Source: an uncultured Actinomycetes bacterium (GTDB lineage Bacteria; Actinomycetota; Thermoleophilia; UBA2241). From it: a stretch of 64,000 bases of DNA. The stretch is taken from NCBI GenBank assembly GCA_963709345.1, contig CAVPVX010000004.1:128001-192000 (forward strand). The letters are read 5' to 3'. How positions within the stretch are numbered: the stretch's first letter is position 1; each line of letters opens with the position of its first letter. Shown here one piece after another: positions 31,699 to 53,807 of this stretch. The notes under the pieces are model-generated. The model searched no databases and was not told the origin of the DNA. It saw nothing but the letters and a program-made list of their open reading frames with translations. Made by a program: the position numbers and the translations under genes.

Positions 31699-32559
31699 AT
31701 GATGGCGGGCGTCGGACTGGTCCTGGAGGGCGGTGGCATGCGCGCCACCTATACCGGTGGTGTGCTGGACGCGTTCATGGACGCCGGCGTCGACCTGGGC
31801 TACGTCGTCGGTGTATCGGCCGGGGCCAACGCCGGCGGGCACTACGTGGCGGGGCAGCGCGAGCGCAGCCACCGCGTGTTCGTGGACTTGGCGGCGGACC
31901 CGCGCTATGCGGGCTGGCGCAACCTGGTTCGCGAGCGGAGCTGGTTCGGCATGGAGTTCCTGTTTCGGACCCTGCCGGACGAGCTGGCGCCGTTCGACTA
32001 CGAGGCGTTCGGTTCGTCGCCGCGGACGCTGGTGAGCGGTGTGACCGACTGCACGACGGGGATGGCGCGGTACTACGCGCAGCGCGACCGCGACCCGCGC
32101 TGGTACGTGCACACCCTCCAGCGCGCGAGCTGCAGCCTGCCGGTACTGTCGCCGCCGGTGCTGGTGGATGGGACCCCGTGCGTGGATGGTGGCGTGGCTG
32201 ACTCCATCCCGATCCGGCGGGCGCTCCAGGACGGCAACCCGCGTAGCGTCGTGGTTCTGACGCGCAACGCGGGGTATCGCAAGCCGCCACCGCGGCTCCG
32301 CGGCCTGGGCCGGGTGCTGTTGCGGCGCTACCCGGCCCTCTACGCCGCGATGCTCCGCCGGCCCACCGTGTACAACGCGTCGCTCGACCTGGTGGAGCGG
32401 ATGGAGCGGGCCGGCTCGGCCTTCGTCCTCCGGCCTGTCCGCCCCCTGGTGGTCGGCCGTCTCGAGCGCGACCGCGGTCATCTCGAGGGCCTGTACCGTC
32501 AGGGCTACGACGAGACCATGGTGCGGATGGGCGAGCTCGAGGCCTGGCTGAGGGGGTAG
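31699..32559 (+). CDS. Patatin-like phospholipase (DUF6363 type)
   Basis: LEGGGMR, GVSAGA (GxSxG), DGGVADSIP. Confidence 0.93.
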   Translation: MMAGVGLVLEGGGMRATYTGGVLDAFMDAGVDLGYVVGVSAGANAGGHYVAGQRERSHRVFVDLAADPRYAGWRNLVRERSWFGMEFLFRTLPDELAPFDYEAFGSSPRTLVSGVTDCTTGMARYYAQRDRDPRWYVHTLQRASCSLPVLSPPVLVDGTPCVDGGVADSIPIRRALQDGNPRSVVVLTRNAGYRKPPPRLRGLGRVLLRRYPALYAAMLRRPTVYNASLDLVERMERAGSAFVLRPVRPLVVGRLERDRGHLEGLYRQGYDETMVRMGELEAWLRG

Positions 32560-32641: not shown

Positions 32642-33002
32642 CTACGATCGCGTTTGGAACTCGACGATGTTGCCCTCCGGATCGGTGACGTGGCACCAGG
32701 TGACGCTCGCCCCGCTCGACGTCGTGAGCGTCACGATCTCCCCGACCGGCGCCCCCCCGGCCGACAGCGCCTCACGACGCGCATCGTCCACCGAGGGCAC
32801 CAGGGAGGCCAGATGGGCCAGCCCGGGGTGGTCCACCGCCGGCGCCGGGCCGCCGGCGATCGGGTCGAAGCTGCAGATCTCCAGCGTGGGGCCATCGGGG
32901 CCGCCGCCGGGCAGTCGCAGGTCGATGCCCTTGAGCGCGGCCCCTGCGATGCGCGTCCCCGCCTCCAGAGCCGGGCCGGAATTGTCGAGCGTTCGTAGTC
33001 AT
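32642..33002 (-). pseudogene. VOC/glyoxalase family gene, 5'-truncated
   Basis: G..L.LPG...GPTLEI..., PGLAHLA..V..VD, DPEGNIVE.Q; N-terminal module is missing next to the tRNA half copy. Confidence 0.7.
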
Positions 33003-33074
33003 GGCCGCAACCATTCAGCAACCCAGGTCTCTGTGATCTGACAGGCCTCGGCGGGTCTTCCCAATCTCACGCGG

Positions 33075-33133
33075 TATACTTGTCCCCCTCGTGGGCCGCT
33101 AGCTCAGTTGGGAGAGCGCCGCCTTTGCACGGC
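33075..33133 (+). repeat. Direct-repeat copy of tRNA-Ala promoter plus 5' half
   Basis: 57/59 identical to 41931-41989, including the TATACT -10 box; ends at TGCACGGC. Confidence 0.92.
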
Positions 33134-33284
33134 TCGCCGAGCGGTCAACGTTCCCCTCAAGACGCAAGAGACGCACGAGATCGGCGAACTCGCCGATGCC
33201 GTCGGGATGCGCGCTTGACAGGTTGCACGCCATATCAGAGCCCCCTGGGGGTCGTCCGGGGCGGCGACGCGCCCGTGGCGCGGC

Positions 33285-34021
33285 TCAGTCGGCGCCGAGG
33301 TACGCCTCTTTGACGTGCGGGTCCTGCAGCAGCGCTGAGGCCTCATCCGTGAGCGTGACCCGCCCCGTTTCGAGCACGTAGCCCCGGTGTGAGATCTCGA
33401 GCGCCACGTGCGCGTTCTGCTCGACCAGAAGGATCGTCGTGCCCTGGGCGTTGATCTCCTTCACGATGTCGAAGATGCGCTCGACGAGCATGGGCGCGAG
33501 GCCCATCGAGGGCTCGTCGAGCATCAGCAGCTTGGGGCCGGCCATGAGCGCCCGGCCCATGGCGAGCATCTGCTGCTCTCCGCCCGACAGGGTGCCGCCG
33601 GGCTGCGCCTCTCGCTCCCTGAGCACGGGGAAGAGGTCGAAGACGCGCTCGAAGTCCGCCTTGAGGTCCTGGCGCGGGCGCGAGAAGGCGCCCATCTCGA
33701 GGTTCTCTCGCACGGACATGCGGGGAAGATCTTGCGGCCTTCGGGAGCCTGGGAGAGGCCCCGGGTCACGACCTCGTAGGCGGGTACGCCGGCGAGGGCC
33801 TGACCCGCGTAGCTGATCGTGCCGGTGCGCGGGCGCAGCAGGCCCGAGATGGCGTTCAGGGTGGTGGTCTTGCCGGCGCCGTTCGCGCCGATGAGCGTGA
33901 CGATCTCGCCCTCGCGGATCTCGAGCGACACGCCCTTGATGGCCTCGATGTTGCCGTAGAAGACGTGGATGTCCCGGACCTCGAGGAGCGCGCCCGAGTC
34001 CTGGGGCGCCGCGGCGCTCAT
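33285..34021 (-). CDS. livF: Branched-chain amino acid ABC ATPase, frameshifted near 33722
   Basis: [17 protein letters not shown], then [16 protein letters not shown] and DEPSMGLAP; one C missing in a homopolymer. Confidence 0.9.
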
Positions 34022-34839
34022 GCGGCGCCCTTGCCGAGATACGCCTCGATCACCTTGGGGTCGGCGCGCACCGCCTCGGGGGTGCCCTCGGCGATCTTCT
34101 CGCCGTGGTCCAGTACGACGACGCGGTCGGAGCTGCCCATGACCACCTTCATGTCGTGTTCGATCAGGATGATGGTCATCCCCTCGTCGCGGATCCTGCG
34201 GATCAGGTCCAGGAGGGCGGCGGTCTCCTGCGGGTTCATGCCCGCCGCCGGCTCGTCGAGGAACAGCACCGTGGGCTCGGTGGCCAGGGCGCGCGCTATC
34301 TCGAGCCGCCGCTGTGAGCCGTAGGGCAGGTTCTTGGCGAGCTCCCCGGCATGCCCCGAGAGGCCGACGTACTCGATGAGTCCCATGCTCTTGTCCCGGA
34401 CGGCGCGCTCTGAGCGCTTCGCGCCCGGTGTGCGCGCGATGATGCTCAGCATGTTCGTGTGCGACCGGCAGTGCTGGCCGACCATCACGTTCTCGAGCGC
34501 CGTCATCTCGTTGAACAGCCGGATGTTCTGGAAGGTGCGTGCGATTCCCAGCTTGGTGACCTTGGACGGAAGCATGCCGGCGATGTCGTGGTCTCTGAAG
34601 CGGATGGATCCGGACGTGGGCGGGTAGACGCCGGTGATGGCGTTGAAGAGGGTCGTCTTGCCGGCTCCGTTGGGGCCGATGAGGCCGACGATCTCGTTCT
34701 CGCCCGCGTGGAAGTCGACCTTGTTGACGGCCACGAGACCGCCGAAGGCCTTGATGAGCTGCGTGGTCTCGAGCACGCACGCACGCTCCCTGGGGGCGGC
34801 CGGTGTGGCGGCCGCGGTCATGTCGTCAGTTGCCGGCAT
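34018..34839 (-). CDS. livG: Branched-chain amino acid ABC ATPase
   Basis: [42 protein letters not shown]. Confidence 0.95.
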
Positions 34840-35968
34840 CGGACCATACCTGTCGCTCGCGGTCGGCCTCGTCCTTACTGCCGGGCCGCATCTCCAGCTT
34901 GACGCGGAGCGAGCCGAGCAGGCCCTGCGGCCGGAAGACCATCAGGAGCACGAGCACGAGGCCCATGGCGATGCCGCGGGTCTCGGGATGTGTCTGCACG
35001 AAGGCGAAGTCGCGCAGCCACTCCTGCAGGCCGATCCAGATGGTCGCTCCGAGCACGGGACCGGCGATGTTGCCCATGCCGCCGAGGACGACGAGGCTCA
35101 GGATGAGGAACGACTCCATGAGCATGAAGCTGCTCGGCGAGATGTAGTTCAGGTAGTGGCCGAAGAAGACGCCCATGGTGCCAGCGAAGAAGGCGCCGGT
35201 CGCGTACGAGAGGAGCTTGTAGCGCGACGTGTGGATGCCCATGGCCTCGGCCGCGACCTCGTCCTCGCGGATCGCGGTCCAGGCGCGGCCGATGCGCGAG
35301 CGCACGATACGGGAGATGCACCACAGGCAGATGAGCGCCAGCACGAGCCCGAGGTAGTAGAGACTGCGCTGCGTGCTGAAGGCGAAGCCGAAGAACTCCG
35401 GCTTGGGGATCCCTGGGATGCCCGAGGGTCCCCGCGTGAGGCCAACCCAGTTGTTGGCGACGATGCGGATGATCTCTCCGAACCCGAGCGTCATGATGGC
35501 GAGGTAGTCGCCGCGCACGCGCAAGGTCGGGTAGCCGATGAGCACGCCGGCGAGCGCCGCCAGCAGCCCGCCGACGACGAAGTTGACCCACGTGAGCCAC
35601 CAGTAGGCGTCGATGTCGACGCCGAACTTCGCCTTGAGCACCAGGTTGAAGATGATCGCCGTGTAGTAGGCGCCGATGGCGTAGAAGGCCACGTAGCCCA
35701 GGTCGAGCAGGCCGGTGAAGCCGACGACGATGTTGAGCCCGGAGGCCAGCACGATGTAGATGACGACGACCGTCATCAGCGTGATCCAGCGGTTGGAGCC
35801 CACCAGGAACGGCAGGAGGACGGCCACCGCGAGCAGCCCGATCAGAAGGGCGCGCTGCCAGCGCGGAGTGCCGTCGCCGGTGAGAGCCGAGGCGATGGGG
35901 TTGAGCCGGGTCTGCAGACGCGTGGGTCCGCTCCCGTTCGCGGCGTCGTTCTGTGGCCGGTCGCTCAT
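34826..35968 (-). CDS. livM: Branched-chain amino acid ABC permease
   Basis: GLNIVVG..GLLDLGYVAFYAIGAY, LRVRGDYLAI.TLGFGEI. Confidence 0.95.
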   Translation of the reverse strand: MSDRPQNDAANGSGPTRLQTRLNPIASALTGDGTPRWQRALLIGLLAVAVLLPFLVGSNRWITLMTVVVIYIVLASGLNIVVGFTGLLDLGYVAFYAIGAYYTAIIFNLVLKAKFGVDIDAYWWLTWVNFVVGGLLAALAGVLIGYPTLRVRGDYLAIMTLGFGEIIRIVANNWVGLTRGPSGIPGIPKPEFFGFAFSTQRSLYYLGLVLALICLWCISRIVRSRIGRAWTAIREDEVAAEAMGIHTSRYKLLSYATGAFFAGTMGVFFGHYLNYISPSSFMLMESFLILSLVVLGGMGNIAGPVLGATIWIGLQEWLRDFAFVQTHPETRGIAMGLVLVLLMVFRPQGLLGSLRVKLEMRPGSKDEADRERQVWSDAGN

Positions 35969-35969
35969 G

Positions 35970-36908
35970 CTAGGCCTTCTGGGTGATGGTGGAGCCGAGC
36001 AGGCCAGACGGCTTGAACGACAGGATCAGGATCAGGATCACGAACGCGAAGGCGTCGCGGTACTGCGAGCCCATCGGCAGGTAGGCGGAGGCGAGAGCCT
36101 CGATGACGCCGAGCAGCAGACCGCCCAGGAACGCGCCCTTGATGTTGCCGATGCCGCCGAGCACCGCGGCGATGAACGCCTTGAGGCCGGGGTTGAAGCC
36201 CATGAGCGGCCAGGCGGCGTGGTACACGCCGCCGTAGAGGCCGCCGGCGAGCGCGCCCATCGCCGACCCGATCAGGAAGGTCAGGGCGATCACCTTGTTG
36301 ACGTTGACTCCCATGAGCGCGGACGTGTTCTTATCCTGCGCCGAGGCGCGCATGGCGCGCCCCATACGGGTGCGCCGCACGTAGAGGTTGAGCAGCAGCA
36401 TCGCGACCACCGTCACGACCACGACGAACACCTGGAAGTAGGTGATCTGCACGTCGTTCACGACGAACGCCTTGGGCGCTCCTGCCGCGGTGGTGAAGAG
36501 CGGGATGTCCGGGAACGGCACCTGCTGCGAGCCGAAGATGCTCTGGGCGACGTTCTGCAGAAGGATGGACACGCCGATGGCCGAGATGAGCGCGGCCAGG
36601 CGAGGTGCGTTGCGCAGCGGCCGGTAGGCGAGGCGCTCGATGACGACGCCCATGATTCCGACGACCACCATGGCGATGAGGATGGCGAGGAAGAAATCGA
36701 GCCCCGGCATGCCTACCGCATGGCCGAACAGCGAGATCTCGTCCGACATCATCATGATGGTGATGAAGGCGCCGAACATGAAGAGCTCGCCGAAGGCGAA
36801 GTTGATGAGCTCGATGATGCCGTACACCATCGTGTAGCCGACGGCGATGAGGGCGTAGAGGCAGCCGATCATCAGGCCGTTGACGAGTTGCTGGGTCAGT
36901 TCGCTCAC
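35970..36908 (-). CDS. livH: Branched-chain amino acid ABC permease
   Basis: QQLVNGL..G..YALIA.GYTMVYGI..LINFA, KAFIAAVLGGIG. Confidence 0.95.
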   Translation of the reverse strand: MSELTQQLVNGLMIGCLYALIAVGYTMVYGIIELINFAFGELFMFGAFITIMMMSDEISLFGHAVGMPGLDFFLAILIAMVVVGIMGVVIERLAYRPLRNAPRLAALISAIGVSILLQNVAQSIFGSQQVPFPDIPLFTTAAGAPKAFVVNDVQITYFQVFVVVVTVVAMLLLNLYVRRTRMGRAMRASAQDKNTSALMGVNVNKVIALTFLIGSAMGALAGGLYGGVYHAAWPLMGFNPGLKAFIAAVLGGIGNIKGAFLGGLLLGVIEALASAYLPMGSQYRDAFAFVILILILSFKPSGLLGSTITQKA

Positions 36909-36938
36909 GGAGACCTCGAGGTCACTCCGTCGGATGAC

Positions 36939-36983
36939 GGCGGGGAGGGGGGAGGGGCGGCGTATCGCCCACCCCTCCCCGCC
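36939..36983. promoter_or_regulatory. Intercistronic stem-loop between livK and livH
   Basis: Perfect 12-bp inverted repeat GGCGGGGAGGGG...CCCCTCCCCGCC. Confidence 0.6.
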
Positions 36984-36998
36984 TCGATCCTTCCGTCC

Positions 36999-38183
36999 TT
37001 ACATGGCGGGCTGCTGAGGAGCCGTGACCAGCGAGCCGTCCTGCACGATGACGATGCTGAGCGGCTTGATGACGTCGCCGTTCTCGTCGAAGGTGATGGG
37101 GCCGGAGACGCCCTCGTAGGTGCCGACCTGCGAAAGAGCGTCGTTGATGGCCGTGCGGTCGTTCTTGCCGGCCTTCTCGGCCGCCGCGGCGGCGAGCATG
37201 ACCACGTCGTACGAGTTCGCCACGAACCAGTCCGGGTTCGCGCCGTCGAACTTGGCCTTGTACGCCTCGACGAGCTTCTGCACCGCCGGGTCTTCTTTGG
37301 TGTAGTCGAAGAACGTGGACACCAGCATGCCCTCGACGGCGGCGCCGCCGAGCTTGGGCAGCTCGTCCGAGGCGTAGCCGTCTGAGCCGAGGAGCTGCAC
37401 GTCCATGCCCAGCTCCTTCGCCTGCTGCGCGATCTTGGAGCCCTCGGGGTAGTAGCCGGAGAGGAAGACCAGGTCAGGGCCGGCGCCCTTGATCTTGGTG
37501 AGTTGGGCCTTGAAGTCGGTGTCGCCGGTGGTGTACTGCTCTTTGCCCACGACGGCGCCGCCGGCTGCCTTGACGCCCTCGTCGTACGCGTCGGCGAGGC
37601 CGCGGCCGTAGTCCGAGTTGTCGTACATGATGGCGATCTTCTGCTTGCCCAGCGTCGCGACGCTGTAGTCGGCAAGGCCCTTGCCCTGCACGGCGTCGGT
37701 CATGCAGATGCGCCAGATGTAGGCGCCCAGGTCGGTGATGTCGGGCTGGGTCGCGGACGGGGTGATCATCGTCAGCCCCGCGGGCTCGTACTTGCCGCCG
37801 GCGGCGATGGTCGCGCCGGAGAACTGGTGGCCGTCGACGACGACGATCTCGGTGTCGTCGATGAACTTCTGTGCGACGAGCACGGCTTCCTTGGGGTCGC
37901 CGAGGTCGTCACCGAGGGCGATCGACACTTCGCCGCCGTTGACGCCGCCGGCGGCGTTGAGCTCTTCCATGGCGAGCTCGGCGCCGGCCTTGTGCGACGC
38001 GCCGTAGGTGGCGTACTGACCCGTCATGGGGCCCGCCACGCCGATCTTGAACGGCACGCTGGCGGCGGTGTCGCCACCGTCACCCTCATCGCCGCCGCCA
38101 CAGGCGGCGAGCGCCACCGATGCCAGCGTCAGCGCGAGTACGACCACAAGCGCGAGCGCGAGCTTCCTGTATGTCTTGTCCAC
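36999..38183 (-). CDS. livK: Branched-chain amino acid-binding lipoprotein
   Basis: LAAC lipobox, KIGVAGPMTG, DD.GDPKEA, DFKAQLTKIK, G.ITFDENGD. Confidence 0.9.
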   Translation of the reverse strand: MDKTYRKLALALVVVLALTLASVALAACGGGDEGDGGDTAASVPFKIGVAGPMTGQYATYGASHKAGAELAMEELNAAGGVNGGEVSIALGDDLGDPKEAVLVAQKFIDDTEIVVVDGHQFSGATIAAGGKYEPAGLTMITPSATQPDITDLGAYIWRICMTDAVQGKGLADYSVATLGKQKIAIMYDNSDYGRGLADAYDEGVKAAGGAVVGKEQYTTGDTDFKAQLTKIKGAGPDLVFLSGYYPEGSKIAQQAKELGMDVQLLGSDGYASDELPKLGGAAVEGMLVSTFFDYTKEDPAVQKLVEAYKAKFDGANPDWFVANSYDVVMLAAAAAEKAGKNDRTAINDALSQVGTYEGVSGPITFDENGDVIKPLSIVIVQDGSLVTAPQQPAM

Positions 38184-38274
38184 GTTGCCTCCCCCGGAAT
38201 GGATGACCGCGAGCCTCAGCCATGTATGCGCGTGCGCGACAGGTTTAGCCTAGCCCGACAGTCGGTTGCAGCGC

Positions 38275-38304
38275 AGTCTAGATGTGAGGTGAATGGGCAG
38301 TCAA
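38275..38304 (-). promoter_or_regulatory. SigA-type promoter of the liv operon
   Basis: Minus strand TTGACT-N18-TAGACT, about 90 bp upstream of livK. Confidence 0.65.
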
Positions 38305-38589
38305 GAAACGTACATCTTAGGAGTGCACGCGCGGGCTGCGGAGTGAGGCGATGTGCTTGAGGTGTCGGACCCCGTGAAGCGCCGCGGTGTGGAACGGCGG
38401 CGGCCTGTGGCTCGCCGGGCGGCCGTCCGCCGTGGTCCCGCCGGTCAGGCCGCCCTGCGCGTGTGGACGCCCCCGGCGAACTCCTCGACGATCCCAGGCC
38501 CAGTCTTCGTCCGCGACGGAAGCGACGTTGGCGACCCAGTTCGCCTTCTCCAACTCGTTATTGGGGCACCGTTGAATCTCATCCGCGGC

Positions 38590-38940
38590 TCACACAGGGT
38601 CGGAACCAACGACGCCGCTATCTGAGACGTGGCTCGTCAATGTTTGGCCATCCCAGTAGCGCATCTCGTGGCGTGAGCGTGGGTCCGGGTACCAAGCGGC
38701 AGGAGTAGAAGCCGCGGCCGACGAGCCGAGTAGCGCAGCCTTCTCGCAGGCGAGCACCTCGGTGTCAAGACCCCCGATTCACGCAACTGGGCTGGTTTTG
38801 CGAGCTCGTCGGCTTTCGAGAGCTGCTGTGGCACGGCTGCGGATGCTTGCTGCGCAGTTCGTATCTGAGCTTGCTGCTGCTGATACTGATCAACGAATGA
38901 ATAGAGGTAGGTCTGAAGTTCCCGACTTCTCTTGGGTCAC
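38590..38940 (-). pseudogene. Remnant of a SHOCT + DUF2510 domain protein
   Basis: ADELAK.AQLRESGVLT / (frameshift) EKAALLG...PAAWYPDPRSRHEMRYWDGQ..T.HV*; no start codon found. Confidence 0.7.
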
Positions 38941-39019
38941 CCCCTGTCCCCGCCCCACCGTCACCCGGTCGTGCACAGAGCGATGAGGTCTCAACCGCGA
39001 CCTCTCTCAGAGACCTGCT

Positions 39020-39388
39020 AGACCCGGCCGCCTCAGCGAGATGGAGATGGACCTCATCCGTGGGCATGCGGCCGCGAGCGCCGCACTCATCGCCGGCATC
39101 GCGTTCGGCGGTCCGGTGGCGGCCGTCGTGAACCAGCACCACGAGCGCCTCGATGGCTCCGGCTACCCCCAAGGGTTCACCGGCGCGGACATCCTTCCCG
39201 AAGCCCGCATCCTTGCGGTCGCCGACGTCGTCGAGGCGATGGCGAGTCACCGGCCCTACCGCGCCGCCCTCGGCATGGAGGTCGCTCTCGCCGAGGTGCG
39301 CGAGCACGCCGGCGAGAAGTACGACACCGATGTGGTCGCGGTCTGCAGCCGGCTCTTCGAGGAGCAGGGCTTCCAGTTCACGCCGTGA
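39020..39388 (+). pseudogene. HD-GYP phosphodiesterase C-terminal fragment
   Basis: PGRLS..E..LIRGH, QHHERLDGSGYP.G, ARILAVADVVEAM.SHRPYR; upstream HD motif is absent. Confidence 0.8.
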
Positions 39389-39389
39389 G

Positions 39390-39635
39390 GTGACGGCCCT
39401 GCGGCAGGCCTGCCCCGACTTCCACCTGACCGTCGAGGACCTCGCCGTCGACGGCGAGGAGGTCTGGCTGAGGATGAGGGGCTCGGGCACCAACGACGGC
39501 CCCTCCGTGGGCCACCCGCCGAGCGGTCGGAAGATGCAGATCGACGTCTTCGACGTGCTTCGCTTCCAGCACGGTCGCATGGTCGAGCACTGGGGCGTGT
39601 CCGACCGCCTCACGGCTCTCCTCCAGTTGGGGGCA
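39390..39635 (+). pseudogene. SnoaL-like ester cyclase C-terminal fragment
   Basis: PDFHLTVED...GEEVW.R....GT..G...G.PPSGR......RF..GR.VEHWG..D.L.LL.QLG. Confidence 0.7.
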
Positions 39636-39740
39636 TACGCCGGCGCCGGGCGCGTCTGCTCCTTCCGCCGGCGTCGTTCTGAGACGTGGGTCTGGGGGAA
39701 TACCGGGATGAGTCTGGCACAGGAAGTGGGGAGGTGTTTC

Positions 39741-40226
39741 ATGGAAGAGTCAGAGACGATGCGGGCCAGGGCCACCGAGGCGCTATGGGTGCCGGCGGGT
39801 GACGATGTGGACGGGGAGCGGCGCGGGCTCGGCATCAGCGTGATCAGCTTCAAGGTGACACCGCGCGACGGCCTCGATCTGCTGGTCCTGGAGAACACCT
39901 TCCACGCGCCCGGCGGGCCGCCCCGCCACCTGCACGAAGAGCAAGAGGAGGTCTTCTACGCGCTGGACGGGGAGTTCGTGATCGAGATCGGCGACGAGCG
40001 GCGTAGCCTCAGGCCAGGTGACGTTGTGCTGGCTCCCCGCCAAGTGCCCCACGTCTGGGCGTCGGTCGGCGATGCAGGGCGGATCCTGATCACCTTCTCG
40101 CCGGCAGGGCGGATGGAGGGCTTCTTCCGGGAGGTCACGAGCCAAGACGCGATGCCCGGACAGGACCCCGAGTTGTGGCGCAGGCATGGCATGCGCATCG
40201 TCGGGCCGCCGCTCGAGCTAGGGTGA
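39741..40226 (+). CDS. Cupin domain protein (quercetin dioxygenase-like)
   Basis: GPPRHLHEEQEEVFY...PGD.VLAPRQVPH; GGAGG RBS. Confidence 0.85.
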   Translation: MEESETMRARATEALWVPAGDDVDGERRGLGISVISFKVTPRDGLDLLVLENTFHAPGGPPRHLHEEQEEVFYALDGEFVIEIGDERRSLRPGDVVLAPRQVPHVWASVGDAGRILITFSPAGRMEGFFREVTSQDAMPGQDPELWRRHGMRIVGPPLELG

Positions 40227-40312
40227 GAGCTTCACGTTTCCTGCAGATTCAGCAATTTGTGGTACCCTTTGCCGAGCCGCTGCAGAGCGAAATCCCTGCA
40301 AATCGTCAAAAT

Positions 40313-40421
40313 GCCCTCGTAGCTCAGAGGATAGAGCACAGGCTTCCCAAAGCCGTAGCCTGCGGGCCGATTCGGGTCCATTTGAGGCCAAGACGGGTCA
40401 ATCCTGCTCGATGAGGGCGCC
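40313..40421 (+). pseudogene. Degenerate/interrupted tRNA (tRNA-Arg-like)
   Basis: GCCCTCG TA GCTCAGAGGATAGAGC D-arm; 3' TGAGGGC-G-CC can close the acceptor stem; T-arm is corrupted and about 30 nt are extra. Confidence 0.55.
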
Positions 40422-40745
40422 CGCCGAGCGGGGCCGAGCCTGTGGTTTCTCGCCGATTCGGCAGCTTACCTGCAACTTGCGTCGGAGGGTGGACCCGCGG
40501 CCGTCTCGCGAGGCGGAGAGAGCGGCAGTCTCAATGACGTCCCTCATGCAGCGAAATCGGCGCGCTGTGAGCCGGTCCCGCACCGCGCGCCGCCGCGAAG
40601 CTCAGGGAGAAGCCGGCTCAGGCGAACCCGAGGCGCTCACGCCCCAGTCCTTCAGGATCACGTCGAGCACGAACTGCGCCATCCGCCCGCAGCGCTGGCG
40701 CGCGTCAGGTTGGTTCGCTTGCTCACCGTCGCACGTTGCCCGTTG

Positions 40746-41663
40746 CTAGGACTTCCGCTGGAGCCAATCTCCGATGAGTTCCAGCACGCGTGAGTCCACC
40801 GGCATCACCATCTGCTGCTTGTAGTCGGCCAGGCTGGGTTCGTGAGCGTCTGCGCGCAGGATGTGCGTCAGGTCGCTGACCTCGTGGTACTCGAAGTCGC
40901 TCTTGACCAGCCCGGCCATGATCTTCAGGTCGTCGGGATCGACCTGGATGTCCTTCGAACCGGTGATTGCGAGAACGGGGACGCCGAGGCGCGAGAGGTC
41001 GTCTGAGGGATCGTAGACCAGGAACTCGCGCATCCACTTCGCATTGAGCTTCCGAACCAGCTGGACGCGCACCCAGTCGCGATCGGTGCGTTTGATCTTG
41101 TTGAGCGCCTTTCTCTGTGACTTTGCAACGTCGATGTGAAGGATGTCGATCAGCCACTTGTTGAGTCCCCGCAGGCCCTGCGCGACGCGCTGTGCCTGCC
41201 AGACCAGGGTCTCTTCCCCCGAGTGGGCCGTGCCGGCCAGGAGAATCGCGCCGGCCATGGGCGCTCCTGCCCCCGCGAGCCGTGTCGCAAGAAGTGCACC
41301 CTCACTGTGGCCGAGCACGAACACCCGAGCAGGGTCGACGTCTCCCTGGGACCGGAGCCACGACAGAGCCGCCGTGGCGTCTGTCACGCCGTCATTGAAA
41401 CCGGTCGTCCAGTAGTCACCCTCACTGGCTCCCACGCCGCGCTTGTCGAAGCGGAAGCTGGCGAAGTCGCGCGGCGCCAAGTAGGCGGCGAGCTGAGGGA
41501 ACGCGTCGATGCGGAGCTTCCCGGCGTTGTCGTCTCTGTCGATCTGGCCTGAGCCCGGGAGCATGAGCACCGCTGCGAACGGTCCGGGGCCGGCGGGCAC
41601 CACGAACGAACCGGCCAGTCGCAGGTCGTCCGACTTGAATGTGACCTCGCGCTCTGCCGCCAT
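40746..41663 (-). CDS. Alpha/beta hydrolase
   Basis: GSGQIDRD.N, RFDKRGVGAS, GHSEG nucleophile, G.KDIQV, LTH. Confidence 0.9.
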   Translation of the reverse strand: MAAEREVTFKSDDLRLAGSFVVPAGPGPFAAVLMLPGSGQIDRDDNAGKLRIDAFPQLAAYLAPRDFASFRFDKRGVGASEGDYWTTGFNDGVTDATAALSWLRSQGDVDPARVFVLGHSEGALLATRLAGAGAPMAGAILLAGTAHSGEETLVWQAQRVAQGLRGLNKWLIDILHIDVAKSQRKALNKIKRTDRDWVRVQLVRKLNAKWMREFLVYDPSDDLSRLGVPVLAITGSKDIQVDPDDLKIMAGLVKSDFEYHEVSDLTHILRADAHEPSLADYKQQMVMPVDSRVLELIGDWLQRKS

Positions 41664-41948
41664 GCTCGACTCCCCTCGGAGCATCGAACTGCCTTACGGC
41701 GACTGTACGTGACCATTCGGGCAGCTGTCGTTTTCCGGCCAAGACTACCGCACCGAGCCTGACGAGCGGGCATGGGTGCTGCGCAGGAATTCGACACACC
41801 CAACGTCCGTATCCTGATCGAACCCGCGCTTCGTCTCCATCGTCTTCCCGGTCTTCACGCGCTGCGTCGCCCTCTGCAACCCTTCTGCACCCCGCGTGGG
41901 TGTCCCTCGGTGTCGGGCAGCATCCTCGGCTATACTTGTCCCCCTCGT

Positions 41949-42024
41949 GGGCCGCTAGCTCAGCTGGGAGAGCGCCGCCCTTGCACGGCGGAGGTCAGGG
42001 GTTCGAGCCCCCTGCGGTCCACCA
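41949..42024 (+). tRNA. tRNA-Ala(TGC)
   Basis: 76-nt cloverleaf, G3:U70 pair, TGC anticodon, TTCGA T-loop, CCA end; TATACT -10 at 41931. Confidence 0.97.
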
Positions 42025-42846
42025 GCGCGCGGAAGCGTCCGGGACGATCGCCTCATCGGAGGTGCCGGCCTCGACCGACACCATGCCGCCCCTGATCACT
42101 CCGTAGCGGTAGTGGCGTGGGTGGTCGCGCGAGGTGAGGCCGTAGCTGCCCGGGTCGATGAGGTACAGGCCGGCGGCGCGGAAGTCGGCCTCGGTCCAGC
42201 GGCGGAAGACGCCTGGTGTGGTGTGGCCGGCGATCTGCTCGACCCCGTCGAGCAGGCGCTCCGGCCCCACGTCGGCGTCGTCGACGCGCAGCCACATCGG
42301 CGAGTGTCCGTCGAGAGTGCGTGGCTCCGGCTGCGTCATGCCCAGCGAGAGCTGGCGTTCCAGGTCGCGGCGGAACTCCTCGTTGATCAGTCGCGCCAGG
42401 CCGGCGCGGTCGTGCTCGACCGCCGCGAAGTCGGCGGCGAACGCGCTGGAGAGTCCGGCATGGCTGATCAGCACGCCGTCCACGTTCGTCACAAGGTTCA
42501 GGGACCCGCTGTTGAACCGTTGCAGGAGCGTCTGGCGGTAGTCCGCGCTGGCCGGGGACTGCTCGCCGATGAAGTACCGCAGCATGGTCGCGTGGTCGTG
42601 GTCGCCGAGCAGCATCTCGGCGCCGAGTTCGTCGAGCCGCCTCAGGCACGCGCCCGGCTGCCCGCCGCGGTCGAGCAGGTCGCCGGCGAACACCAGGTGG
42701 TCCACCCCGGCGCGGAAGCGCGAACGTCGCAGAGCGTTCTCGAGGAACTCGGGAAACGCGTGTACGTCCGAGACGACCAGCGTGAACGGTGTCGCCGGCT
42801 GCCGAGCGTCATCCCGCGCTGCCTCATGCCTGGCCATGGTCATCAT
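41995..42846 (-). CDS. Calcineurin-like metallophosphoesterase
   Basis: VSDVH, GDLLDRG, LGDHD, SHAG, QIAGHT; stop codon lies in the antisense strand of the tRNA. Confidence 0.8.
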   Translation of the reverse strand: MMTMARHEAARDDARQPATPFTLVVSDVHAFPEFLENALRRSRFRAGVDHLVFAGDLLDRGGQPGACLRRLDELGAEMLLGDHDHATMLRYFIGEQSPASADYRQTLLQRFNSGSLNLVTNVDGVLISHAGLSSAFAADFAAVEHDRAGLARLINEEFRRDLERQLSLGMTQPEPRTLDGHSPMWLRVDDADVGPERLLDGVEQIAGHTTPGVFRRWTEADFRAAGLYLIDPGSYGLTSRDHPRHYRYGVIRGGMVSVEAGTSDEAIVPDASARWWTAGGSNP

Positions 42847-42909
42847 GTGCCCCGAGTAGGCCGGACGGCTGCTCGCCGTCGACGCTACGCGCCCCATGCA
42901 GGGCGCCTC

Positions 42910-43140
42910 CTACACCACGCGGTCGTCCTCGTCGACCGGCTGCCGCAGCCACGCCTCCAGCTGGACGAACAGCGGCCAGCGGCCGAAGGCCAGCCAGGCG
43001 ATCAGGACGGCCTGGCCGACGAAGGGCACGAACACCAGCAGGGCGGCCCACGGCGGGTAGCCGACCCGGGACAGGATGCGGTAGAAGCAGTAGGCCAGGA
43101 ACGCGTAGAACAGGAGCCCACTGAGAACGACCGGGCTCAT
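42910..43140 (-). CDS. Small membrane protein
   Basis: RI..R.GYP.W..LL..VP..G......LAF..WP pattern; AAAGGGG RBS. Confidence 0.7.
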   Translation of the reverse strand: MSPVVLSGLLFYAFLAYCFYRILSRVGYPPWAALLVFVPFVGQAVLIAWLAFGRWPLFVQLEAWLRQPVDEDDRVV

Positions 43141-43234
43141 AGGTCCCCCTTTCTCAGGATCGTGCTGGTCTGAAGACAATGTACCCGCGTACCTGGCCGT
43201 CAACGGTACTCATCGGTAAGCTGGTGAGTGCGCA

Positions 43235-43275
43235 TGCACGGCGGAGGTCAGGCGTTCGAGCCTCCTGCGGTCCAC
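43235..43275 (+). repeat. Direct-repeat copy of tRNA-Ala 3' half (att-like)
   Basis: 39/41 identical to 41982-42022; begins at TGCACGGC. Confidence 0.92.
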
Positions 43276-43344
43276 GAGACCGTTCCGCGCTCGTGTGTGC
43301 GCTCGTGTGCGGGCGCCGTGGTGCCCCCTGGAGACGGAGGAGTC

Positions 43345-44697
43345 GTGGGACACGCAGCGGGCCTGGGGCGCGCTCATCAGGATCTGGCGAAGCGCCTGCA
43401 GCGCGGATCCGTCGCCATGGTCGAGCCGCGGGATCCCGCGGCGAAGCGGGCCTGGCGGGAGATCCTGGAGATCCTCTTCTCTCCCGACGACGCCGCTCTG
43501 GCCGCCCGCCTGCCGGTCGTCCCCACCACCCTCGCGGACCTTGCCCGGCGCACCGGCGCGAGCGAGGGCGATCTCCGCGCCCGGCTCGGAGCTATGGCCG
43601 GCAAGGGCCTCGTGCTCGACCTGCACGACGCCCGGACCGGCGCGACGACGTACATGCTCGCGCCTCCCGTGGTGGGCTTCTTCGAGCTCTCCATGATGCG
43701 CCTGAGCGACGGTCTGCCGAAGGAGCGCCTGGCCCGAGCCTACGAGGCGTACATGACCTGCGACGACACGTTCGACGCGGAGGTCTCCGCGGTCCCCACG
43801 CGCGTCAGCCGCACCCTCGTGCAGGAGACCGCCCTCTATGACGACCTCGCCTCGGAGGTCCTCGACTGGGATCGAGCCACGTCCTATGTGGAGCAGGCCG
43901 ACTATCTGGCCGTCACGAACTGCTTCTGCCGCCACGTGGCGACCCACCTCGGCACGGCGTGCGACTACCCCCTGGAGACGTGCCTGAGCCTAGGGACGGC
44001 GGCCCGCTACCTCGTCCGGCACGGCCACGCCAGGCCGATCGGCAGGGAGGAGGGACGCGAGCTCCTCGAGGCCGGCCGGGAGCACGGCCTCGTGCACATC
44101 GGCGACAACGTGCAGCGGGAGCTGAGCTACATCTGCAGCTGCTGCGCTTGCTGCTGCGTCGAGCTCCGCGCGGCGCAGAAGGGCATGCCGGTGACGCAGC
44201 CGAGCGCCTTCCAGCCCGCGGTTGACGACCGCCGGTGCACCGCCTGCGGCGCCTGCCTGCGGGCGTGTCCCGTCCAGGCCATCTCGATCGTCCCCCAGGC
44301 GGCCCCGCAGGGCGGCGCGGATGCGGCCGCGGCGCAGCTGACCGGCGCGGACGCGGCCACGGTGCCGTTGACCTGCGCCGTCGATCTCGGCGCCTGCCTC
44401 GGCTGCGGCGTCTGCGTCGGCGCCTGCTCCCAGGGCGCGCTGACGATGGTGCGGCGCCCGCAGCCTCCCCACGTCCCGCTCAACGCCGTGGAGTACCTCA
44501 CCCGGCGGATGCTCGAGCGGGGGAGGCTGGCGGACCTGCTCGTGGACGGCGCGGCGGGGCGAGGACCGGCGTTCGCCAACGCCGTGCTGGGGGCCATCCT
44601 CTCGCTGCCGCCGGCGCAGGGGCTGCTCGCGAGCGAGCAGGTGCAGTCGCGCTTCGTCGCGTTCGCCCTTGCCCGGTTTCGGCCGCCCGCCGGGTGA
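43345..44697 (+). CDS. Fe-S protein with 4Fe-4S dicluster domain
   Basis: CFCRH, ICSCCACCC, CTACGACLRACP, CLGCGVCVGAC; GGAGGAG RBS. Confidence 0.85.
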   Translation: MGHAAGLGRAHQDLAKRLQRGSVAMVEPRDPAAKRAWREILEILFSPDDAALAARLPVVPTTLADLARRTGASEGDLRARLGAMAGKGLVLDLHDARTGATTYMLAPPVVGFFELSMMRLSDGLPKERLARAYEAYMTCDDTFDAEVSAVPTRVSRTLVQETALYDDLASEVLDWDRATSYVEQADYLAVTNCFCRHVATHLGTACDYPLETCLSLGTAARYLVRHGHARPIGREEGRELLEAGREHGLVHIGDNVQRELSYICSCCACCCVELRAAQKGMPVTQPSAFQPAVDDRRCTACGACLRACPVQAISIVPQAAPQGGADAAAAQLTGADAATVPLTCAVDLGACLGCGVCVGACSQGALTMVRRPQPPHVPLNAVEYLTRRMLERGRLADLLVDGAAGRGPAFANAVLGAILSLPPAQGLLASEQVQSRFVAFALARFRPPAG

Positions 44698-52662: not shown

Positions 52663-53807
52663 AGCGTGCCCACCTTTCGTCGCAGGACGGCGAGGCCGCT
52701 TCCCAGGATGACGGCGCACCAGACGGCGGCCAGCGCGAGGGGGCCCCAGAGCTCCGCCCACGACTTGCCGTACGACGTGACCCCGACCATGACCTCGATC
52801 ACGCCCCAGGTGGGAAGCACCTTTATCCACGTCGCCGTCGCGCCGGGGAGCAGCGCCGTCACCGCCGGGATGGCGAGCGGGATCAGCAGCGCGATCCCCA
52901 GGAAGAGAGTGCCGATGAAGTCCTTGCCCGCGGACCCCGAGAGCAGCGCCGTCCCGGTGGCGATGACGGCGCCGAGCAGCGTGCCGGCGAGCAGCAGGCT
53001 CCACCCGGCTCCGAAGGAGCGGGTGAGCGCCAGCAGGATCACCGCCTGGGAGAAGGCGAGCGCGGTGCCGAGGAGCACCTTGGCCGTGAGGATGTCGGAG
53101 ACCCTCGCTGGGGTCGCCATCAGGGCGATGACGGTGCGCCGCTGGATCTCGACGGCGATCAGCGTGGCGAGCACCATGGACTCCATCATGAGGACGAAGA
53201 AGGCGAGCAGTGGCCGCATGCGCTCTTGCGGCGTGACCTGGCGGCCGGCGAGGTCCGGCCCGAGCACGGTCGTCCGCTGGCGGACCGGGACGGCACTCGC
53301 CGGGTCCTCGCCCGCCGCCGCAGCAGCGGTCAGTGCCGCGATCTCGCGCACGGCGCTCTTCATCGCTCCGCGCACCTCGGCCGGCACGTCGCCGCCGACG
53401 TAGACCGTCACGTCGGACGTCTCGTCGCGCGCTGCGCGCGCTGTGAAGTCAGCGGGGAATGCGAGGCCGGCGACGACGTCGTCGTCAGACGCTCCGCCGT
53501 CAGCGCCCCCCTCCCCCGCGACCGCGGCGCGCAGAGCTTCAGGCGAGGTGAAGGAAACGACCTCGAGCCCCTGGCCGCCCTCCGCCCCGGAGGCGCCGAG
53601 GCCGTTCAGCGAGTCGGCCAGGTCCGCGGGGTACACTCCTACGCGGATCGTCTCGTCGACGGACGACGGCAGCAGCCAGAAGAGAGCGATGAACATCACG
53701 AGGCCGACCGTCGTCAGCACGAGCCAGAGCCGGTCGCGACTGAACTCGCGTGCGTCCTTGCGGACGATCGCCCACACGATCGCGGGTCGGGAGACGGGCC
53801 GGGTCAC
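52659..53807 (-). CDS. ABC-2 type exporter permease
   Basis: EIQRRTVIALMATP; multi-TM; coupled to neighbouring genes. Confidence 0.88.
   Translation of the reverse strand: MTRPVSRPAIVWAIVRKDAREFSRDRLWLVLTTVGLVMFIALFWLLPSSVDETIRVGVYPADLADSLNGLGASGAEGGQGLEVVSFTSPEALRAAVAGEGGADGGASDDDVVAGLAFPADFTARAARDETSDVTVYVGGDVPAEVRGAMKSAVREIAALTAAAAAGEDPASAVPVRQRTTVLGPDLAGRQVTPQERMRPLLAFFVLMMESMVLATLIAVEIQRRTVIALMATPARVSDILTAKVLLGTALAFSQAVILLALTRSFGAGWSLLLAGTLLGAVIATGTALLSGSAGKDFIGTLFLGIALLIPLAIPAVTALLPGATATWIKVLPTWGVIEVMVGVTSYGKSWAELWGPLALAAVWCAVILGSGLAVLRRKVGTL

Follow-up and report, generated by a model that had tools for sequence, protein, structure and literature searches.

How does a tRNA gene come to lie between two halves of itself? 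This question is raised by a 64,000-nt stretch of DNA, called here the window, which lies on contig C4 (383 kb) of an uncultured Thermoleophilia genome (G000; 3.1 Mb, 11 contigs). An intact tRNA-Ala(UGC) in the window is preceded, 8.9 kb upstream, by a displaced copy of its own 5′ half and followed, 1.25 kb downstream, by a displaced copy of its 3′ half, and both copies stop at one 8-nt core. Quite probably, site-specific integration into the anticodon loop of this gene took place at least twice, in separate events, and the locus is what decay has left of them; two events fit the data better than one insert. The mechanism is known, and the locus is an unusual form of a known process rather than a new mechanism. 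What is unusual is the combination: both forms of integration at one core of one tRNA, a 5′ form that outnumbers the 3′ form, arrays that reach 24 units with hardly any integrase genes, and a hybrid junction.

The intact tRNA-Ala(UGC) and its displaced halves

The intact gene (41949–42024, plus strand) was identified by ARAGORN and by Rfam (RF00005, 62.9 bits), and the core, TGCACGGC, occupies 41982–41989 within it on the same strand. The displaced 5′ copy (33075–33133, plus strand) consists of a TATACT hexamer, a short leader, the tRNA 5′ half and the core at 33126–33133. A repeat search aligned it with 41931–41989 over 59 nt at a spacing of 8856, with 57/59 identical positions (97%). The old 3′ half (43235–43275, plus strand) starts at the core and is identical to 41982–42022 at 39/41 positions; the repeat search reported this pair as 43230–43278 against 41977–42025 (49 nt, 90%, spacing 1253). 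When the two 41-nt halves of the tRNA were used as queries, the 5′ half matched 33093–33133 and the 3′ half matched 43235–43275, each with two mismatches, and a second match was obtained in 0/100 dinucleotide shuffles in either case. Both identities had been proposed in an earlier note made from the letters of the window (the original prediction) and are borne out, as is its statement that the copies overlap only in TGCACGGC, whose eight bases are the anticodon, two more from the loop and three from the 3′ strand of the stem.

The genome-wide search for other tRNA-Ala halves that the original prediction had proposed found no copy of a half of this tRNA beyond these two in the whole 3.1 Mb of G000, in which 41949–42024 is the only regular tRNA-Ala(UGC) gene. 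Rfam matched only the tRNA in the window. ARAGORN additionally called an irregular 88-nt tRNA-Ala(tgc) at C4:359354–359441, which has no BLAST similarity to tRNA-Ala(UGC), and a 98-nt tRNA-Ala(agc) at 53227–53324, which is probably a false call, as it is unsupported by Rfam at the gathering threshold. Misassembly is an unlikely source of the copies, because the closest relative (G004, 95% identity) keeps the tRNA, the 1.25-kb segment and the old 3′ half in the same order and because copies occur in many independent assemblies. In public reads, the best run contained only 26% of the sampled words and consists of short contigs, and four runs gave mostly ABC-transporter pieces of other organisms. 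A joint from 33119 to 41991 was considered as an excision product and rejected: 15 foreign letters separate its two sides, one side is 20 nt long, and the tRNA is that of another organism.

The original prediction had further described the 5′ copy as bearing a promoter. The TATACT hexamer, 12 nt before the tRNA start, is indeed conserved and is the only conserved promoter-like feature; a sigma-70 consensus scan of 32900–33300 returned 0 sites at the 5′ copy, and the promoter is thus a putative one.

The similarity of the 5′ copy is not confined to the tRNA half. Against the repeat unit of related genomes it extends to 33006–33173 (nhmmer, 159.6 bits), which adds ~70 nt upstream of TATACT and 40 nt beyond the core, and the intact tRNA with its upstream region (41875–41991) aligns to positions 2–131 of the 5′ unit. 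An arm-type-like direct repeat pair (YGCAACC, 11 nt apart) is located at 33005–33024 (plus strand), about −120/−109 from the core, and aligns with the same pair in 15 full-length units of relatives; an equivalent pair is located upstream of the intact tRNA (41874–41893, plus strand). In the 15 full-length units, the YGCAACC motifs form clusters ~105–137 nt before the core and ~69–85 nt after it, with the repeat pair before the core in 7 units and after the core in 5 (4 of the 15 lack the exact core string, so that their offsets are not scorable). Between the two clusters, the order is TATACT hexamer, 5′ half, core, short variable hairpin and a conserved 21-nt motif. Judged by this layout, a full 5′ unit looks like an entire attP of ~215 bp, with arm-type sites to either side of the core, as should be expected if the incoming arm of one element and the outgoing arm of the following one meet in an array unit. 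The window retains the upstream pair in both places and has lost the downstream pair: the element-side arm (P′) of its 5′-type site (33134–33176, plus strand) contains the variable hairpin region and the conserved 21-nt motif (33153–33173), is truncated at 33176 and lacks the +71/+83 arm repeats. Rfam assigned no family to the arm that follows the 5′ half; the matches were to tRNA and, below threshold, to mraW in two relatives' arrays. Lone arm-type repeat pairs that are not followed by any tRNA half are present on contig C17 of G063 (L028 3776 and 12167).

The 3′-type site is built differently. Its element-side arm (P; 43150–43234, plus strand) aligns with the arms that precede the 3′ halves of G010, G016, G014 and G058, and these arms differ from the 5′ arm in carrying conserved, repeated GNCACT-like words. 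Without exception, (T)TGCACGGC is where the 5′ copies stop and the 3′ copies start, which would place the crossover within the anticodon loop and stem, as in the anticodon-centred class of sites.

Arrays of tRNA halves and integrases in related genomes

The relatives are uncultured Thermoleophilia assemblies of one genus, all of them metagenome-assembled genomes (MAGs). With the tRNA and its 24 upstream bases as the query, matches were found in all 54 genomes of the genus and arrays of half copies were seen. We scanned 33 stretches around the tRNA (1.08 Mb) for 5′ units, by means of a profile, and for the 3′ half; 28 of them hold an intact tRNA and are the neighbourhoods counted below. All 76 true 5′ units (76/76) are located upstream of the tRNA and are co-oriented with it. 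The raw script count of 77 upstream hits includes the second intact tRNA of G064, and its single downstream hit, in G053, is a separate tRNA-Ala(GGC). The 3′ halves show the opposite polarity, with 22/25 downstream and 3 upstream, two of the latter in G058 and the third between the two tRNA copies of G064. In that genome, two intact tRNA-Ala(UGC)-like genes lie 19 kb apart (contig C4:1161699–1181011; L046, L047) with this 3′ half between them.

The largest 5′ arrays comprise 24 units in G005 and 10 in G008. Many 5′ units are truncated or degenerate, and two apparent arm-only units (G008 and G002), considered as hybrid junctions, proved to be truncated 5′ halves. Arrays are present in ~20/54 genomes, and a scan of metagenomes with a core-plus-arm pattern returned 34 contigs, while the same pattern gave 0 matches in IMG/VR viral contigs; the pattern scans required exact matches and so undercount diverged units. 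Because five genomes have a bare tRNA with no leftovers (G048, G049, G022, G065 and G006) and five more are without a 5′ unit (G060, G046, G009, G052 and G001), the array habit is that of a subclade of the genus. Lone 5′ units also occur far from the array, at G005 C14:229225–229280, G012:C2:338692 and G053:C23:183570; some have the opposite orientation, which could allow inversions.

G004 shares the 3′ side of the locus and not the 5′ side. The tRNA, the 1.25-kb segment and the old 3′ half are common to G004 and the window; other DNA follows the 5′ unit of G004, which is located 15.8 kb from the patatin gene that flanks the locus on the left. The empty site that the original prediction expected in relatives, with the patatin gene, the tRNA and the Fe-S gene of the right flank adjoining, was absent from all fetched stretches.

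We cut 78 cassettes from the arrays of 12 genomes. Their median length is 1394 bp, with 42/78 shorter than 1.5 kb and 60/78 shorter than 3 kb. Cassettes common to several genomes are 79–95% identical, like the flanking genes, and their order is compatible with vertical descent and loss. The cargo consists of ordinary metabolic, transport, redox, regulation and signalling genes, and no mobile-element genes were found among it in G005, G010, G008 and G016. By rough GC3-based gene calls, 116 cargo genes are co-oriented and 69 are opposed, a mild bias.

A hybrid junction connects the two kinds of site. G058 holds a 1216-nt copy (93.4%) of window positions 41977–43192, which contain the 3′ half, a metallophosphoesterase gene, a 97-aa open reading frame (ORF) and the arm, and this copy is located 7–8 kb upstream of its tRNA. 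The left end of the copy reads 3′-type arm, core and 3′ half, and the right end reads 3′-type arm, core and a full 5′-type arm with the repeat pair. Recombination at the core between a 5′ unit and a 3′ unit would be expected to leave a junction of this kind as a by-product, and since the junction joins arms of both types there, the two kinds of site recombine with each other. The layout in G058 may have arisen by one excision of a tRNA-bearing block and one re-insertion through the tRNA core into a 3′ unit. Excision and re-insertion of this kind predict genomes with two intact tRNAs, as in G064, and would explain the occurrence of the 97-aa ORF on the 5′ side in G005 (92%).

Of the enzymes that could act at the core, the window holds none that we could detect. 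PF00589 has no match on contig C4, tblastn with four integrases found nothing in the window, and the serine recombinase family PF00239 has no match in the whole G000 genome; the claim of the original prediction that the locus has no integrase was correct in these respects. Integrases are found at the same tRNA elsewhere. In G054, the order is tRNA-Ala(UGC), HTH_17, Prim-Pol and an integrase of 396 aa, which has an arm-binding, a SAM-like and a catalytic domain; the intact tRNA forms the 5′ boundary of this element, an ordinary one of the 3′ type. Integrases of the same family (40–48% identity) are present in G063 and G060, and integrase fragments lie inside the 5′ arrays of three genomes, as C-terminal pieces in G012 and G016 and as a frameshifted copy in G002. 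Immediately beside the tRNA, no integrase is found in 27/28 neighbourhoods, and that of G054 is located at the far end of the 3′-type element.

Two of the metagenome contigs place an integrase beside 5′ units. In L102, ~1.8 kb separate a 5′ unit from a full-length 400-aa integrase, beyond which comes a primase-polymerase-like gene; in L104, the 2.97 kb between two 5′ units contain an integrase ORF together with two small ORFs. The L104 integrase shares 72% identity with that of L102 over the C-terminal 262 residues and 53% identity with that of G054 over 286 residues. No relation was found between the two small ORFs of L104 and the SnoaL/cupin gene of the window, which had been considered as a cargo link. 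A third Xer-like tyrosine recombinase of G000 (354 aa; C7 ~428003–429067, L029 4003–5067), with a Phage_int_SAM_4 and a catalytic domain, is conserved in most genomes of the genus; it was dropped as a candidate, as it is also present in the array-free genomes G003 and G009.

A site of the 5′ type with an intact integrase is present in G000 itself. On C7, a 433-aa integrase lies directly upstream of tRNA-Arg(CCT), and its orthologues (91–95%) are found in at least eight other genomes. The displaced 5′ units of this tRNA contain repeat pairs of a similar word, a 5′ half that runs to the anticodon loop, a hairpin and a conserved arm. Several integrase fragments are located there and on C5 (C7:765934–774912; C5:9076–19915; L083, L085), and most tRNA-Arg units keep such fragments. 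We take the tRNA-Arg(CCT) site as a working model, live in the same genome, of 5′-type integration. A fossil unit of this kind, with upstream region, 5′ half and element arm, is also found within the 8.9-kb segment of the window (40233–40480, plus strand): 40290–40351 is 90% identical to the start of tRNA-Arg(CCT) on C7, and the unit is 78–83% identical to copies at C7:772585–772775, C5:9076–9322 and C5:13312–13476. Related integrases lie directly upstream of, and co-oriented with, tRNA-Arg(CCT) in G041, tRNA-Leu(CAA) in G045 and tRNA-Arg(UCU) in G050, so that an integrase followed by a tRNA is a common layout in the genus; displaced 5′ units are confirmed only at tRNA-Arg(CCT). A further pair of tRNA genes in G000, two tRNA-Ala(CGC) 2.5 kb apart (C1:198430–202785; L084), match each other over ~45 nt of upstream sequence and from the 5′ end as far as the variable loop but differ in their T arms, with acceptor-stem position 2 mismatched. 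An integrase of the same family, of which the C-terminal half is present, is located 1.2 kb upstream of the pair, which looks like another integration site.

Origin of the locus

We propose that an element of the 5′ type would bring its own upstream region and tRNA 5′ half, and that its insertion would have pushed the resident 5′ half 8.9 kb upstream (33075–33133), where the arm of the element would follow it. A canonical 3′-type element would bring a tRNA 3′ half and would have pushed the resident 3′ half 1.25 kb downstream (43235–43275), where it is preceded by the arm of that element. Both leftovers would end at the same eight bases because both kinds of element use the same anticodon-loop core. 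As recombinases we propose tyrosine integrases that belong to one family and differ in their arm sites. Their genes would have been lost from the G000 copies, the 5′ site would have lost its outer arm repeats, and the present content (the liv transporter operon, the SnoaL/cupin gene, the hydrolase gene and the fossil tRNA-Arg unit) would be reworked cargo. The anatomy, its presence in a subclade of the genus, the strict polarity, the arm repeats, integrases at this tRNA in other genomes and one hybrid junction are observed; the order of the events, the role of these integrases as makers of the sites and the route by which the liv operon came are what we infer. The original prediction had offered, as one of two readings, that DNA was added on both sides of one att core by a recombinase acting in trans, in a capture locus free of integrases. 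The addition on both sides is favoured by the different arms, the 76 5′ units against 25 3′ halves, the occurrence of the 3′ segment elsewhere and the arrangement in G004. The locus is not, however, a novel kind of capture system free of integrases, since integrases of one family lie at the tRNA or at half copies, with fragments inside arrays, and the half copies have an ordinary attL/attR anatomy with arm repeats; the absence of integrases is better described as a loss of their genes, possibly with help in trans.

Such help is the centre of a different account, which we regard as possible and doubtful, in which tRNA-Ala(UGC) is a two-sided integron-like capture platform served in trans by related integrases, as from a rare autonomous element located elsewhere, and in which the two kinds of site recombine and thereby move blocks and the working tRNA. 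Integrase-less cassettes, each with a full attP-like unit formed from a tRNA 5′ half and its upstream region or from a 3′ half, would be inserted, excised and shuffled, and the 8.9-kb and 1.25-kb segments of the window would never have had an integrase of their own. The 76 5′ units, set against no full-length integrase on the 5′ side, are consistent with it, and the small cassettes (median 1394 bp) suggest movement with help in trans. Full attP-like array units would make any cassette excisable as a one-site circle, the G058 junction speaks for recombination between the site kinds and for movement of blocks, the two intact tRNAs of G064, 19 kb apart, are as block re-insertion predicts, and the cargo is made of ordinary metabolic, transport and regulator genes. 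However, the integrase fragments inside arrays and in most tRNA-Arg units make decay a sufficient explanation, many units are truncated or degenerate, and the common cassettes are as diverged as the flanks (79–95% identical) in an order that fits vertical descent and loss. A platform of this kind would also be expected to show a fixed integrase gene and a strict gene orientation, whereas no integrase gene is fixed here and the genes are oriented 116 to 69. It is far less probable that the ancestral tRNA was split at the anticodon by one 10.1-kb insert that had a bare core site and brought along a whole tRNA-Ala, upstream region included, as a replacement, the other reading of the original prediction, with nested arrays as the result of its repetition in relatives. 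In its favour, the two leftovers share one core as their end point and together would make up a tRNA again, the core has an arm on either side, as is expected for a bare site that has been inserted, and the G058 junction consists of 3′-type arm, core and 5′-type arm; one block excision and one re-insertion account for that junction as well. Nesting predicts equal numbers of 5′ and 3′ leftovers, but 76 and 25 were counted. The 5′ unit has its own repeat word on both arms and the 3′ arm has another, which points to self-contained kinds of site, G004 shares the 3′ side only, and the G054 element, bounded by the intact tRNA, has the ordinary 3′-type arrangement. An old, decayed duplication of the tRNA region or an assembly artefact is the least credible origin, even with repeats as short as 59 and 41 nt, a MAG as the source and a 1-nt gap in livF that is possibly an assembly error: the copies stop exactly at the anticodon-loop core, their arms are conserved in other genomes, G004 has the same layout, and arrays are found in ~20/54 genomes and in 34 metagenome contigs.

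Two separate integrations with later decay thus remain the preferred reading, and several observations weigh against it. Neither Pfam nor tblastn detected an integrase or a fragment of one within the 10.1 kb of the window between the displaced halves. On the 5′ side, no full-length integrase is present in the 28 genome neighbourhoods, and the evidence for integrases consists of the three fragments and the two metagenome contigs; the first 140 aa of the L104 ORF match neither L102 nor G054, and this ORF may be damaged. The median spacing of the 5′ units, 1394 bp, is small for decayed integrase-bearing elements. The arrival of the liv operon in the 5′ segment is unexplained by the model, as no att-like sites lie beside the liv operon in 9 loci of relatives, and the truncation of the 5′ arm in G000 means that the present junction is not the original one. 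The relatives are MAGs that are 53–100% complete with 1–8% contamination, in which repeats assemble poorly.

The separate parts of this reading have precedents. In the portion of the Islander survey drawn on here, an attP of ~250 bp and an anticodon-centred class of sites are described, 159/3919 islands have a 5′ fragment, and tandem arrays of at least three number only four, each member with its own integrase. The view in the original prediction that tyrosine-integrase islands duplicate only the 3′ part of a tRNA therefore describes the norm but not an absolute rule. Like the islands of that survey, which are made by tyrosine integrases with a lambda-like attP, the present locus has an intact tRNA with a co-oriented displaced end fragment on the expected side, a crossover that would lie in the anticodon loop, arm-type repeats ~70–120 bp on each side of the core, and tandem re-use of the site. 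An attP-like site with arm-type repeats around a short core is present as well, whereas an integrase inside the interval is found in G054, L102 and L104 and not in the window, so that the Islander filter would reject this locus. Rare 5′ and common 3′ forms at one core, and arrays of up to 24 units, are further differences from the islands covered in that portion. According to a passage of PMC6563490, the 5′ part of a tRNA is a considerably rarer partner in recombination, and elements with tyrosine recombinases build up arrays by using one site repeatedly; for integration into the 5′ part, with a 'reversed target orientation', that article cites Zhao and Williams 2002. As that description requires, the element here must bring the 5′ half and the upstream sequence, and the displaced fragment is upstream. 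In contrast to the frequency given there, the 5′ form is the commoner one at this locus (76 against 25 leftovers), and a similar build of integrase and tRNA recurs at tRNA-Arg(CCT), tRNA-Leu(CAA) and tRNA-Arg(UCU) in the genus.

The tycheposons of Prochlorococcus (Hackl et al., bioRxiv 10.1101/2020.12.28.424599) are described, in the sections used here, as building islands next to a tRNA through successive integrations; only partial tRNA copies separate the elements, and the islands also contain degraded integrases, scattered partial tRNAs and cargo for nutrient uptake. The present arrays resemble these islands in their partial tRNA copies, degraded integrases and cargo beside a tRNA, a likeness that concerns layout, and some tycheposons carry primase/polymerase genes, as do G054 and L102. 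They belong to another phylum, with Thermoleophilia as hosts in place of Prochlorococcus, and differ in direction, since the growth described there is one-sided and that seen here is on both sides of the tRNA. Integrons likewise hold an ordered array of small site-bounded cassettes at a fixed place, most without a recombinase; in contrast, no integrase gene is fixed at the platform here, attC-type hairpin sites and a single platform promoter are lacking, the cassettes have no strict orientation (116 vs 69), and recombination sites here are made of tRNA halves and their arm repeats.

In an abundant group of uncultured soil Actinomycetota, the flexible genome is shaped by this process, through which a single essential tRNA gene gathers tens of kilobases of transport, redox and regulatory genes on both sides. 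Because the rare 5′ form is the commoner one at tRNA-Ala(UGC) and a similar build is found at several other tRNAs, the genus lends itself well to studies of how the upstream region and 5′ half of a target are provided by the incoming element. The common core and the G058 hybrid junction suggest that two integrase lineages with different arm sites can act on each other's products, which, if true, would be a simple route to the shuffling of blocks. For annotation, these arrays will escape island finders based on integrases, and the halves may be reported as genes by tRNA finders.

Gene content of the locus

Gene calls other than Pfam matches are ad hoc. The left flank contains a PfkB kinase gene, a patatin-like phospholipase gene (31699–32559, plus strand; Pfam Patatin 6.9e-24 and DUF6363; orthologues 82–89% in relatives) and a truncated glyoxalase/VOC fragment (32642–32836, minus strand), of which the C-terminal 64 aa are present (Pfam Glyoxalase, profile positions 69–121/121). 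The right flank contains the 4Fe-4S dicluster protein gene (43316–44697, plus strand; Pfam Fer4 families; 84–87% to relatives) and an ADH/tyrosine-phosphatase fusion gene. The longest ORF of the Fe-S gene opens at 43228, over the displaced 3′ half, and its similarity to relatives begins at 43316. The GC content is 0.64–0.70 over 33.2–42 kb and mostly 0.68–0.76 outside (within ~6 kb), with the exception of one low stretch of 0.59–0.65 at 46.8–48.2 kb; the lower GC of the 5′ segment speaks for the preferred reading.

The 1.25-kb segment on the 3′ side encodes the metallophosphoesterase (41995–42897, minus strand; Pfam Metallophos 4.3e-11), which is 89% identical to that of G016 and 93% identical to that of G058, and the 97-aa ORF (42910–43203, minus strand), which has no Pfam match. 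The 97-aa ORF is 92% identical to a stretch in the 5′ array of G005 and shares 94% protein identity with its counterpart in G058. The 3′ end of the metallophosphoesterase ORF falls within the tRNA (41995–42024), in antisense.

The 8.9-kb segment on the 5′ side carries a SnoaL-like and cupin gene (39153–40226, plus strand; Pfam SnoaL 1.5e-21, Cupin_2 4.3e-13), an alpha/beta hydrolase gene (40746–41684, minus strand; Pfam Hydrolase_4 1.6e-17) and a livFGMHK-type branched-chain amino acid ABC transporter operon (33285–38183, minus strand; Pfam ABC_tran, BCA_ABC_TP_C, two BPD_transp_2 and Peripla_BP_6). The operon is 82–87% identical to that of relatives, at about the level of the flanking genes. 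In relatives it is located 12–96 kb downstream of the tRNA, whereas in G000 it is upstream, with its start 78 nt past the truncated arm; its relocation into the 5′ segment is clear. In 4 of the 9 liv loci of relatives, none of which has att-like sites beside the operon, it adjoins genes whose G000 counterparts are at contig positions 201.2–202.5 kb. The truncation of the 5′ arm suggests that the operon entered by an illegitimate join rather than by a clean site-specific step. livF reads as frameshifted by a 1-nt gap after 33722 relative to 4/4 orthologues shown, and the missing base is present in two contigs of the best public run, so the frameshift may be an assembly error rather than a sign of a pseudogene. 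G015 carries two tandem liv operons on contig C25:7412–20010, which are 83% and 82% identical to that of the window.

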